Part shown: piece after piece, positions 27,665 through 43,435 of the stretch
Layout of the letters: every line of letters begins with the position of its first letter
Numbering within the stretch: the stretch's first letter is position 1
Source: Escherichia coli
GTDB taxonomy: Bacteria > Pseudomonadota > Gammaproteobacteria > Enterobacterales > Enterobacteriaceae
NCBI RefSeq assembly: GCF_030384885.1
Contig: NZ_CP128613.1
DNA: 64,000 nt
Strand: one strand, 5' to 3'
Notes under the pieces: model-generated
The model's input: the letters and a program-made list of their open reading frames with translations, nothing else
Told to the model about the DNA's origin: nothing
Database searches by the model: none
Position numbers and translations under genes: made by a program

Positions 27665-28071
27665 GTGAAAAGGTGGTGTTCAGTCAACTGAGCCGTAAAT
27701 TTATTGATGAGAACGATGCCACGCCCGCCGAGGCGCAGCAGGTGGTCTATTACAGCCTGGCGATTGGTCACCACCTTGGGGTTATCGATTGCCTGGAAGC
27801 CGCGCTCACCTGCCCGTGGGATGAATATCTGGCATGGATTGCCACTCTGGAGGCGGGCAGTGAAGCCCGCCGTAAAATGGAAGGCGTGCCGAAATATGGT
27901 GAGATCGTTATCGACATTAACCATGTGCCGATGCTGGCCAACGCATTCGATAAAGCCCGGGCAACGCAAACTTCGCAGCAGAAAGAATGGAGTACCATGC
28001 TGTTAAGTATGCTGCATGATATTTATCAGGAAAATGCCATCTATTTGATGGTGAGGAGACTGCGTGACTGA
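27661..28071 (+). CDS. hycH: Formate hydrogenlyase maturation protein HycH, 136 aa
   Basis: Operon position and size. Confidence 0.85.
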
Positions 28072-28534
28072 CGTTTTACTCTGTGTTGGCAATAGCATGA
28101 TGGGCGATGATGGCGCAGGTCCGCTGCTGGCGGAAAAGTGCGCCGCCGCGCCGAAAGGTAACTGGGTGGTGATTGACGGCGGTAGCGCACCGGAAAACGA
28201 CATTGTCGCCATCCGCGAACTGCGCCCGACGCGACTGCTGATTGTCGACGCCACGGATATGGGGCTAAACCCCGGCGAGATCCGCATCATCGACCCGGAT
28301 GACATCGCTGAGATGTTTATGATGACTACCCATAACATGCCGCTGAACTACCTTATCGACCAGTTGAAAGAAGATATTGGTGAAGTGATTTTCCTCGGTA
28401 TCCAGCCGGATATCGTCGGTTTTTACTACCCGATGACCCAGCCGATTAAAGATGCGGTAGAAACCGTTTATCAACGACTTGAAGGCTGGGAAGGGAATGG
28501 TGGATTTGCGCAGTTAGCGGTGGAAGAAGAGTAG
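28064..28534 (+). CDS. hycI: Hydrogenase 3 maturation endopeptidase HycI, 156 aa
   Basis: Operon position and size. Confidence 0.9.
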   Translation: MTDVLLCVGNSMMGDDGAGPLLAEKCAAAPKGNWVVIDGGSAPENDIVAIRELRPTRLLIVDATDMGLNPGEIRIIDPDDIAEMFMMTTHNMPLNYLIDQLKEDIGEVIFLGIQPDIVGFYYPMTQPIKDAVETVYQRLEGWEGNGGFAQLAVEEE

Positions 28535-28701
28535 TTCGTAGACAAACATATTCACGTTTTTGAATCTGGACGTGCTATTGTGACGTTTAGACGGGTGTTT
28601 ACATATTGTGAATACTCGTGTGATCAACTACTATAGAAAAATAAAACCGAAGGAACGGGTAGTCCAGGCTTAGTCATTCAGGCGCTGATAAGGAAGTTAA
28701 A

Positions 28702-29013
28702 ATGCACATCATTTCGAAAGCGCCATTTGAAGAGTGCGCGCGCAAATATCCTAACGACGCTCTGGCTTTACACTCATTGTATCGGGTTATTAAGGAAACG
28801 GATTTTTCTACGCCAGAAGAAATGCGAACGGCGTTTCCCAACCTCGACAATTTTAAATATCGTAACAAATGGTACGTTCTGGATGTAGGCGGGAACAATC
28901 TTAGGGTTATTGCCTACATAAACTTTGTTAATAAGCGGTTCTTTGTGAAGCACATAACGAATCATGCCGAGTATGACAAACTGACACGTTACTACAGAGA
29001 GAACAGAGAATGA
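28702..29013 (+). CDS. HigB-like type II toxin (RelE/ParE-superfamily mRNA interferase), 103 aa
   Basis: Close architectural and sequence resemblance to K-12 HigB/YgjN (VFPNLDNFKY, VGGNNLRV); AAGGAAG RBS; not placed here in K-12 as I recall. Confidence 0.75.
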   Translation: MHIISKAPFEECARKYPNDALALHSLYRVIKETDFSTPEEMRTAFPNLDNFKYRNKWYVLDVGGNNLRVIAYINFVNKRFFVKHITNHAEYDKLTRYYRENRE

Positions 29014-29429
29014 CTGCTAATGCTGCACGCGCTGTTAAAGCAACAAGAGAACTGGTCAATGCAGTCCCCTTTCTGGGAGGCAGTGACTCAGAAGATGATT
29101 ATCGTGAAGCACTGGAACTGGTCGAATATTTGATTGAAGAAGATGACACCAATCCACTTATCGACTTTCTGGCGAGCCGCATTGCAGAGTATGAAAACAA
29201 CCACGAAAAGTTTGCAGAGTTCGACAAAGCCGTTGCTGCAATGCCGGTTGGCGTGGCGTTACTTCGCACGTTGATTGATCAACATAATCTGACCTATGCG
29301 GATTTGAAGAACGAAATCGGCTCTAAATCCCTGGTCAGTCAGATTTTGTCTGGACAAAGATCCCTGACGATATCCCACATTAAGGCACTTTCAGCCCGAT
29401 TTGGCGTTAAGCCGGAATGGTTTCTTTGA
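29010..29429 (+). CDS. HigA-like antitoxin with C-terminal XRE-type HTH, 139 aa
   Basis: 4-bp ATGA overlap with the toxin gene; C-terminal HTH (SLVSQILSGQRSLTISHIKALSARFGV). Confidence 0.75.
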   Translation: MTANAARAVKATRELVNAVPFLGGSDSEDDYREALELVEYLIEEDDTNPLIDFLASRIAEYENNHEKFAEFDKAVAAMPVGVALLRTLIDQHNLTYADLKNEIGSKSLVSQILSGQRSLTISHIKALSARFGVKPEWFL

Positions 29430-29440
29430 TTTTTGACAGA

Positions 29441-29540
29441 TGCCAAACGCCAGATTGCCCGATGTGCTGCGCTTATCGGGCCTACATGTCGCACGAACTA
29501 TGTAGGCCGGATAAGGCGTTCACGCCGCATCCGGCACGTT
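29441..29540. repeat. REP/BIME element cluster
   Basis: Two inverted REP-like palindromes (gccggataaggcgttcacgccgcatccggc type). Confidence 0.7.
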
Positions 29541-29543
29541 TGC

Positions 29544-32434
<2,891 letters not shown>

Positions 32435-32693: not shown

Positions 32694-33704
32694 ATGACGA
32701 CAATGCTGGAAGTGGCGAAGCGCGCCGGGGTTTCAAAAGCGACCGTTTCCCGCGTGCTTTCAGGTAATGGCTACGTCAGCCAGGAAACTAAAGATCGCGT
32801 GTTTCAGGCGGTGGAAGAGAGCGGCTACCGCCCAAATTTGCTGGCGCGCAATCTGTCAGCGAAGAGTACCCAGACGCTGGGGCTGGTAGTGACCAACACG
32901 CTTTACCACGGCATTTATTTTAGTGAATTACTGTTTCATACCGCGAGAATGGCGGAAGAGAAAGGGCGTCAGCTGCTATTGGCAGATGGCAAACATAGCG
33001 CCGAAGAAGAACGCCAGGCGATTCAGTATCTACTGGATCTGCGCTGCGACGCCATTATGATTTACCCGCGCTTTTTAAGCGTGGATGAGATTGATGACAT
33101 CATTGATGCGCACAGTCAGCCGATAATGGTGCTCAATCGACGCCTGCGCAAAAACAGCAGCCATAGTGTCTGGTGCGATCATAAACAGACCAGCTTTAAC
33201 GCCGTGGCAGAGTTGATAAACGCCGGACATCAGGAGATTGCTTTCCTTACCGGTTCGATGGATTCCCCCACCAGCATTGAACGCCTTGCCGGATATAAAG
33301 ACGCGCTGGCGCAGCATAGTATTGCACTCAATGAAAAACTTATCGTCAACGGTAAATGGACGCCTGCCAGCGGGGCCGAAGGGGTAGAAACGTTGCTCGA
33401 ACGTGGGGCTAAATTTAGCGCGTTAGTTGCCAGTAACGACGATATGGCGATAGGTGCGATGAAAGCGTTGCATGACCGTGGTGTAGCGGTGCCGGGGCAA
33501 GTATCGGTTATTGGATTTGATGATATCGCAATTGCCCCCTACACCGTTCCGGCGCTCTCCAGCGTAAAAATTCCGGTGACTGAGATGATTCAGGAAATAA
33601 TTGGGCGGCTGATATTTATGCTCGATGGTGGTGCTTATACACCGCCGAAAACCTTCAGCGGAAAACTGATCCGCCGCGACTCCCTCATTGCTCTTTCGCG
33701 ATAA
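32694..33704 (+). CDS. ascG: LacI-family repressor AscG, uninterrupted
   Basis: LacI-type HTH N-terminus (MLEVAKRAGVSKATVSRVL); exact start among three clustered ATGs is uncertain. Confidence 0.85.
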   Translation: MTTMLEVAKRAGVSKATVSRVLSGNGYVSQETKDRVFQAVEESGYRPNLLARNLSAKSTQTLGLVVTNTLYHGIYFSELLFHTARMAEEKGRQLLLADGKHSAEEERQAIQYLLDLRCDAIMIYPRFLSVDEIDDIIDAHSQPIMVLNRRLRKNSSHSVWCDHKQTSFNAVAELINAGHQEIAFLTGSMDSPTSIERLAGYKDALAQHSIALNEKLIVNGKWTPASGAEGVETLLERGAKFSALVASNDDMAIGAMKALHDRGVAVPGQVSVIGFDDIAIAPYTVPALSSVKIPVTEMIQEIIGRLIFMLDGGAYTPPKTFSGKLIRRDSLIALSR

Positions 33705-36805: not shown

Positions 36806-36892
36806 GTGCCGGATGCGGCGTGAACGCCTTATCCGGCCTACACATGCGCTCCCCGTAGGTCGGATAAGACGCGCCAGCGTCGCATCCGACAT
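36806..36892. repeat. REP/BIME element pair after hypF
   Basis: gccggatgcggcgtgaacgccttatccggcctaca and gtaggtcggataagacgcgccagcgtcgcatccgacat. Confidence 0.7.
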
Positions 36893-43370: not shown

Positions 43371-43435
43371 TGCCTGATGAGCGTAGCGCATCAGGCATTT
43401 TATTAGTCTCGCGGAGATCCTTAACGGATCTCCGC
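43371..43435. repeat. REP-like palindrome plus perfect 10-bp-stem hairpin between srlD and gutM
   Basis: tgcctgatgagcgtagcgcatcaggca; gcggagatcc-ttaac-ggatctccgc. Confidence 0.6.

Follow-up and report, generated by a model that had tools for sequence, protein, structure and literature searches.

Two REP palindromes lie between a toxin-antitoxin gene pair and ascB in Escherichia coli, and the question they raise is whether they record how that pair came to the locus or left it. The DNA analyzed is a stretch of 64,000 nucleotides, called the window below, and positions are those of the window unless a strain or locus is named. An initial annotation, made from the sequence alone, had placed two REP palindromes in opposite orientation within positions 29441 to 29540, at the 3' boundary of a higBA-like block, and had proposed that the cluster, REPs being prone to recombination, may mark the junction where the block was gained or lost. 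As a description this was accurate. The convergent gap between higA and ascB, 114 nt long, holds both palindromes; the cluster is the first feature past the 3' edge of the higBA block, 16 nt away from it; and the flanking genes are as stated, a HigB-family toxin gene and an HTH antitoxin gene on the plus strand, with ascB converging on the minus strand.

The left anchor of this variable locus is hycI, the last gene of the hyc operon (28064 to 28534, plus strand), assigned from its open reading frame and from the RefSeq annotation of E. coli strain 2013C-4282, to which positions 28300 to 29800 of the window are 99.9% identical. Next come a higB-family toxin gene of 103 amino acids (28702 to 29013, plus strand; Pfam PF09907 HigB_toxin, E = 3.8e-23), whose product RefSeq names 'type II toxin-antitoxin system HigB family toxin', and a higA-type HTH antitoxin gene of 139 amino acids (29010 to 29429, plus strand; Pfam HTH_3, E = 1.5e-9), whose product is a HigA family antitoxin in some RefSeq records. 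With the toxin gene first, the HTH antitoxin gene second and a 4-nt overlap between them, the two appear to form a HigBA module. The higBA of K-12 (ygjN-ygjM) and the higBA modules of plasmids are alike in combining the HigB_toxin family with an HTH antitoxin, toxin first, with a 4-nt overlap. However, the K-12 pair is a separate paralogue at a different chromosomal site, and the plasmid modules show only 70 to 73% DNA identity to the higBA of the window. On the right, ascB, assigned from its open reading frame and annotation as encoding a 6-phospho-beta-glucosidase, occupies 29544 to 30980 on the minus strand, with its stop codon at 29544 to 29546.

The element itself spans 29457 to 29535 and is extragenic, lying between the stop codons of higA (29429) and ascB (29544). 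REP1 (29457 to 29485, plus strand, GCCCGATGTGCTGCGCTTATCGGGCCTAC) is of the z1 type and has its CTAC end toward the linker, making it an 'iREP' on the plus strand. The head-to-head linker of 16 nt, ATGTCGCACGAACTAT, occupies 29486 to 29501, and REP2 (29502 to 29535, plus strand, GTAGGCCGGATAAGGCGTTCACGCCGCATCCGGC) is of the y type, with a 5' GTAG and an AA/GC stem mismatch. A flank of 16 nt on the left, TGCCAAACGCCAGATT (29441 to 29456), accompanies REP1 in every strain and also in further species of Escherichia. REP2 agrees at 34 of 34 positions with the y-REP consensus, with 0 matches expected in 100 shuffles. The published y query is one loop base off that consensus (PMC11208160). Ungapped alignment of REP1 with the z1 query GCCTGATGCGCTACGCTTATCAGGCCTACG (PMC11208160) gave 25 matches in 30 positions, and two of the five differences make up a compensatory change from T-A to C-G. 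A conserved GTAG at the foot, or CTAC on the other strand, defines a REP (PMC3333891); here the CTAC at 29482 to 29485 and the GTAG at 29502 to 29505 face each other, so that the two units stand head to head. Both stems carry the two-base mismatch that is required for TnpA-REP binding (PMC3333891), AA opposite GC in REP2 (GGATAAGGCG...CGCCGCATCC) and GT opposite TT in REP1. The REP1 palindrome consists of 7-bp outer stems plus an inner stem. A repeat search found the inner arms, 29472 to 29487 and 29500 to 29515, to be 94% complementary and the 14-nt REP2 stem, 29506 to 29519 and 29522 to 29535, to be 86% complementary. The predicted fold of the 126-nt region has an energy of -46.0 kcal/mol on the plus strand (z = -3.2) and -49.2 kcal/mol on the minus strand (z = -4.0).

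Such sequences are repeated many times in the chromosome. The median number of matching places per E. coli genome is at least 37 to 39, with no more than 40 listed for any genome, and a loose REP pattern found only four REPs in the 64-kb window, where shuffled sequence would give 0.18. The two REPs besides REP1 and REP2 are a second exact copy of the y consensus starting at 36808 (36808 to 36841) and a z1-like palindrome of 25 nt at 43372 to 43396. The two palindromes beside ascB therefore have the properties by which REPs are recognized, namely a palindrome of 30 to 40 nt, a GTAG or CTAC foot, a stem mismatch, a consensus sequence present in multiple copies and an extragenic position, and, as two REPs in alternating orientation with a linker between them, they form a BIME. 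Knowledge of REPs and BIMEs in E. coli goes back to the 1980s, and the present element resembles them in its imperfect palindromes of 30 to 35 nt with GTAG/CTAC tags and two-base stem mismatches, in the opposition of a y and a z1 unit, in its extragenic place at gene 3' ends and in its high copy number. An Rfam search returned a match to naRNA4 at REP2 that was below threshold (39.6 bits, against a gathering score of 59.5); naRNA4 is a REP-derived family, and the reading of this match as a small RNA gene is unsupported.

Two main classes of BIME have been described, BIME-1, in which z1 and y units are joined by a long (L) linker, frequently with an IHF site, and BIME-2, in which z2 and y units are joined by a short (S) linker and occur in tandem copies; chimeras of these classes are called atypical BIMEs (PMC3333891). 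The z1 and y composition of the element in the window fits BIME-1, but that class is ruled out by the linker, which has 16 nt instead of the long L form and lacks an IHF consensus, the motif WATCAANNNNTTR being absent from both strands of 29430 to 29545. BIME-2 is ruled out as well, because REP1 has the 30-nt length of z1 and not the 37-nt length of z2 and because the element is a single unit, unlike tandem BIME arrays. Since it joins the REP types of BIME-1 through a 16-nt linker without the IHF consensus, the z1 and y units standing head to head are best filed as an atypical single BIME. It is an ordinary element of an already known kind, present in K-12 too, and has little importance alone.

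The neighborhood is less uniform than the element. Among 5,426 complete E. coli genomes, the comparison set used throughout, the hycI–ascB locus is very polymorphic. The order seen in the window, hycI-higB-higA-BIME-ascB, is found in L001 and, with one REP, in L002; L003 has hycI-hyp247-higB-higA-BIME-ascB; L004 has hyp251-higA, with higB deleted; L005 has a 61-amino-acid remnant and higA; L006 and L008 are versions without the asc genes; L007 has IS621 in the BIME; and L009, L010, L011 and L012 are K-12-like, with neither hyp247 nor the pair. At least 80% of positions 28300 to 29800, which cover higB, higA and the end of ascB, was matched in 925 of the 5,426 genomes, and the K-12-like junction without the pair in 2,782. 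An intact hyp247 joined straight to the REP1 flank, with the pair absent, occurs in 134 genomes, L095 among them. Two REPs abutting the end of ascB are present in approximately 3,350 genomes (62%), including K-12 derivatives and BL21, and for the one-REP state we have sampled proportions rather than clean genome counts, as nearby matched pieces were merged.

The left junction of the window type, without hyp247, runs directly onto the hycI stop codon and was found in only 192 of the 5,426 genomes. In this type the 165 nt 5' of higB (28537 to 28701) are largely unrelated to the equivalent 165 nt in strains with hyp247, except for an operator-like GTGTTTACATATTGTGAA and the ribosome-site region, and the higB and higA coding regions are approximately 95% identical between the two.

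K-12 MG1655 has the same element at the same locus (intergenic region 2842415 to 2842572), matched over the full 163-nt query at 89.6% identity. Compared with the window, K-12 has its linker the other way round and a decayed REP1 tag, CTTC; it lacks higBA, and all that remains of hyp247 is a relic of approximately 60 nt. The K-12 spacer between hycI and ascB (L012:1916-2073) is what is left of a gene of 247 to 251 amino acids with no Pfam match; Pfam likewise gave no family for hyp247, for the 142-amino-acid orphan described below or for the 61-amino-acid remnant. Several species of Escherichia have this gene intact, as does a minority of E. coli (L003:478-1221; L095:629-1384). In the K-12 gap, the hyp247 leader and ATG are fused to the last 25 nt or so of hyp247 and a short 3' flank, the fusion point lying across a GGGATGT repeat that occurs at the hyp247 start codon and near its stop codon. 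The K-12 gap is thus what a collapse of hyp247 left behind, and it bears no trace of the pair. A pair once present there could have gone without a mark, because a deletion from ACTGA to ACTGA, the repeat at the higBA junction, would recreate the original site.

That junction could be read by aligning filled with empty sites. Sequence common to the pair-less strains starts at 29441, which puts the right edge of the higBA block at 29440/29441, 16 nt to the left of REP1. Pair-less strains with hyp247 (L014 and L095) read ...CAGAACTGA|TGGCAAACGC...REP1, and strains with the pair read ...CAGAACTGA|CTTTTTGCAG..higB-higA..TTTTGACTGA|TGCCAAAC...REP1. In L014, which is E. coli E69 and has hyp247 and no pair, the empty site is ...GGGGTGAATCAGAACTGA|TGGCAAACGCTAAATT-REP1. 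The left junction is ...CAGAACTGA|CTTTTTGCAGAGTGG in L003, L004, L006 and L007, which have the pair or a remnant of it; the right junction is ...TTTCTTTGATTTTGACTGA|TGCCAAACCCCAGATT-REP1 in L003 and L004 and GACAGA|TGCCAAACGCCAGATT in the window. The higBA cassette accordingly has the ends CTTTTTGCAGAGTGG...TTTTGACTGA and sits between the stop codon of hyp247, an older gene, which is 0 to 9 nt away on the left, and REP1, 16 nt away on the right. At its right edge the short direct repeat (29436 to 29440) is ACAGA in the window and ACTGA in most strains. From these junctions, higBA is bounded by a direct repeat of 4 to 5 bp (ACTGA) that lies outside the REPs, with the BIME left intact. Escherichia sp. 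MOD1-EC7003 has 30 extra bases, CTTTTCACGACGAAGAATCAGTCAGACTGA, exactly at the higBA insertion point (L017:5268-5298). Their start and finish resemble the cassette ends, and they could be the scar of a cassette deletion, a precursor sequence or a chance likeness.

The BIME has a history of changes of its own. Its linker exists in two orientations: the window, L004, L009 and L095 have one, and K-12, L003, L010, E69 and E. albertii have the inverse, which is therefore the ancestral orientation. The orientation of the window, with both REPs intact, was found in 448 genomes. The linker is flanked by the inverted arms CCTACAT/ATGTAGG, and the presence of both orientations with and without higBA suggests either that the linker has flipped repeatedly, through template switching or recombination between the REP arms, or that recombination has shuffled the orientations. 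L005 has lost the linker, and REP2 is missing from the O157-type L011 and from L002. In B2-type strains without asc, a cassette with an orphan gene of 142 to 145 amino acids and its own terminator-like hairpin replaces the center of the BIME (L006:3423-4200; L008:2387-3344), splitting it so that the cassette lies between REP1 and the right half of REP2. E. coli without asc, in which hycI...higA is followed by hydN, keep 83 nt, made up of the right half of REP2 and an ascB 3' stub of approximately 65 nt.

The asc operon has been lost in Escherichia in at least two different ways (L013:5290-5330; L016:5250-5480; window 33665 to 33704). The 3' end of ascB survives as a stub in E. albertii. In E. 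whittamii, REP1 is broken off just after its CTACA and continues into the final 40 nt of ascG, the two sides sharing only 1 nt of microhomology. Recombination between REPs was rejected as the route of asc loss, there being no REP between ascG and hydN at the far end of the operon.

REP1 is also a natural target of the insertion sequence IS621, an IS110-family element with a bridge-RNA recombinase. The IS621 target is the 11-nt ATC(A/G)GGCCTAC with a CT core, its commonest natural form being ATCAGGCCTAC, and the target loop of the bridge RNA encodes a specificity equal to ATCGGGCCTAC (PMC11208160). Positions 29475 to 29485 (plus strand) of the window are ATCGGGCCTAC, with the CT core at 29482 to 29483; REP1 is thus the G variant of the target and a perfect match to the guide. 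IS621 was found inserted at ATCGGGCCT|ACA of REP1 in O104:H4 (L007:3065-4330), KO11FL (L093:1125-2536) and VTB96933v, a chicken isolate (L094:1126-2536). The ends of IS621 in L007 read ...ATCGGGCCT|TGTAT...ACAGTATCT|ACATG... around the CT, and the annotation of L093 and L094 puts an IS621 transposase at this position of REP1 too. Both the motif and actual insertions at its core are therefore in evidence, and the site resembles other natural REP targets of IS621 in that its motif is occupied in other strains, unlike in the window, where REP1 is free of IS621. The insertions are in pair-less and in higA-only backgrounds. A probe matched from ACA onward only, as expected for an IS621 insertion, in about 196 of the 5,426 genomes, so that beyond the three genomes checked IS621 probably occupies the CT core of REP1 in about that number, a few percent of sequenced strains.

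Taken together, these observations are best explained by an ancestral atypical BIME placed before the ascB stop codon, at the meeting point of transcripts coming from the hyc side and from the asc operon, with higBA inserted 16 nt to its left, and we regard this account as very probable. It is unlikely, in comparison, that the proximity of higBA is causal and that the BIME flank is a preferred capture site for foreign cassettes, directed by structure or by REP enzymes. Four inserts (hyp247, higBA, the 142- to 145-amino-acid orphan cassette and IS621) do lie inside the BIME or 0 to 30 nt from it, and the C|T dinucleotide required for cleavage by TnpA-REP (PMC3333891) is present in ACTGA. However, REP targeting has been demonstrated for IS621 only, the higBA junction is 16 nt off the palindrome while cleavage in vitro was at iREP feet or linkers (PMC3333891), a convergent intergenic gap simply tolerates insertions, and a microhomology of 4 to 5 bp fits ordinary illegitimate recombination. 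Equally improbable, in our estimate, is the broader proposal that the flank and center of the BIME are a reusable docking site acting through REP structure or REP-processing enzymes; docking is established for IS621 and is speculation for hyp247, higBA and the orphan cassette.

The history offered in the initial annotation, in which recombination at or between REPs made the gain or loss of higBA and the BIME is its scar, is very unlikely. REPs are known join-points for rearrangements, a mere 16 nt separates the BIME from the right edge of the block, and other rearrangements are visible within the BIME. Yet the whole BIME and its 16-nt flank are common to filled and empty sites, the break is at ACTGA beside the hyp247 stop codon, the left edge of the block has no REP, and strains that have the pair, like strains that lack it, include either linker orientation and either number of REPs. 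L014, L095, L009 and K-12 each contradict the scar. The BIME of pair-less L095 is one base (a SNP) off that of the window with an identical linker orientation, and the two-REP cluster is found too in pair-less L009, which has the same architecture, in K-12 and BL21, and in E. albertii. None of the states of the BIME, whether of linker, REP2, IS621 or cassette, tracks the presence of the pair. Comparison of the hycI–ascB junction with and without the pair thus finds the same REP cluster in pair-less strains and the BIME untouched, and the REPs do not mark where the block came or went. The premise that REP clusters are prone to recombination stands here for IS621 insertion, linker inversion, loss of REP2 and the cassette that splits the BIME, and fails for higBA.

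The relative ages of the BIME and the pair follow from a wider comparison. A scan across species, with one genome per species and the best 80 HycI loci kept, found HigB or HigA beside hycI at 0 of 80 loci. Relatives of higBA, at 70 to 73% nucleotide identity, are carried by plasmids of Klebsiella, Cronobacter, Salmonella, Enterobacter and Leclercia. From the empty species loci and the plasmid relatives, the pair was gained within E. coli, beside a BIME that was already there. A plasmid donor was rejected, as the plasmid matches are coding regions at that identity and the flanks are not shared. The pair was later eroded, with higB deleted in L004 and higB and most of hyp247 in L005 and L008. 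The gene hyp247 is found 3' of hycI in E. whittamii, E. albertii (frameshifted), Escherichia sp. MOD1-EC7003 and E. coli E69, and it has relatives at 61 to 62% identity in Phytobacter and Klebsiella spallanzanii.

The BIME itself is more widespread. E. albertii has REP1, the linker and REP2 followed by an ascB stub of approximately 45 nt, E. whittamii keeps REP1 together with its 16-nt flank, and Escherichia sp. E1V33 and E69 have both REPs. Judged by this sequence comparison, the BIME is older than the toxin-antitoxin pair and is orthologous in pair-less E. coli and E. albertii. Its positional conservation across species argues against recent movement. It is accordingly hardly credible that the REP pair is a young mobile REPIN, recently moved by a REP-associated transposase independently of its neighbors. 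Two inverted REPs with a short spacer are indeed the TnpA-REP unit in vitro (PMC3333891), and the sequence requirements of a TnpA-REP (RAYT) substrate, which are GTAG, a stem mismatch and an inverted partner, are all present, but the same unit, with its 16-nt left flank and linker, is at this locus in E. albertii, E69 and E1V33, and its presence in 62% of E. coli genomes marks it as old and vertically inherited.

Citrobacter, Klebsiella, Enterobacter and other genera commonly have hycI and ascB in convergent orientation. Head-to-head REP pairs lie between the two genes in Citrobacter sp. R56 and Awk4, in Pseudocitrobacter, K. indica, C. koseri and an Enterobacteriaceae genome, where they end 8 to 12 nt from the ascB stop codon, and in Kluyvera, Enterobacter and Raoultella the gap holds other palindromes. 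The REP pairs of Citrobacter, Pseudocitrobacter and Klebsiella indica are the positional equivalent of the BIME, an equivalence that could reflect independent colonization of the convergent gap by REPs rather than strict orthology. Given REP pairs or palindromes in so many genera, a hairpin-forming element at the convergent 3' ends of hycI and ascB is a long-standing feature.

As to what such an element does, the most likely role, by analogy with known REPs, would be that of a two-way 3'-end hairpin for the converging transcripts. Once transcribed, the BIME would form the 3' untranslated end of two messages, that of higBA from the plus strand and that of ascFB from the minus strand. Its stem-loops would block 3'-to-5' exonucleases and would attenuate read-through into the converging gene. 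Roles of REPs and BIMEs in mRNA stability, attenuation and gyrase binding are cited in PMC8266576 and PMC3333891. As summarized in PMC12306157, a REP lowers translation of the upstream gene when fewer than 16 nt separate it from the stop codon; REP2, whose foot is 8 nt from the ascB stop codon, is within that range and so may be close enough to damp AscB translation through ribosome stalling, and REP1, 27 nt from the higA stop codon, is outside it. As DNA, the BIME would serve IS621 as a landing pad and would probably be acted on by TnpA-REP and gyrase. REP2 is dispensable, as the O157-type and L002-type strains lack it, and because ascFB is annotated as cryptic in K-12, selection on a hairpin at the 3' end of ascB may be weak. 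That the element is a plain bidirectional intrinsic terminator merely resembling REPs is most improbable, for although both strands form strong hairpins and other palindromes fill the same gap in Raoultella, Enterobacter and Kluyvera, which have no REPs there, REP2 is an exact match to the y-REP consensus, the sequence is multicopy with GTAG/CTAC tags, and neither hairpin is followed by a T-run, a terminator scan of 29441 to 29543 having found no T-tract terminator on either strand.

For the biology of this locus, then, the comparison gives a useful negative, in that the BIME is not the scar of a toxin-antitoxin gain. The locus is a compact example of a convergent gap that gains and loses cassettes while its REP cluster persists. 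If the docking proposal were nevertheless true, the accessory genome would be shaped by BIMEs acting as small hotspots of integration.
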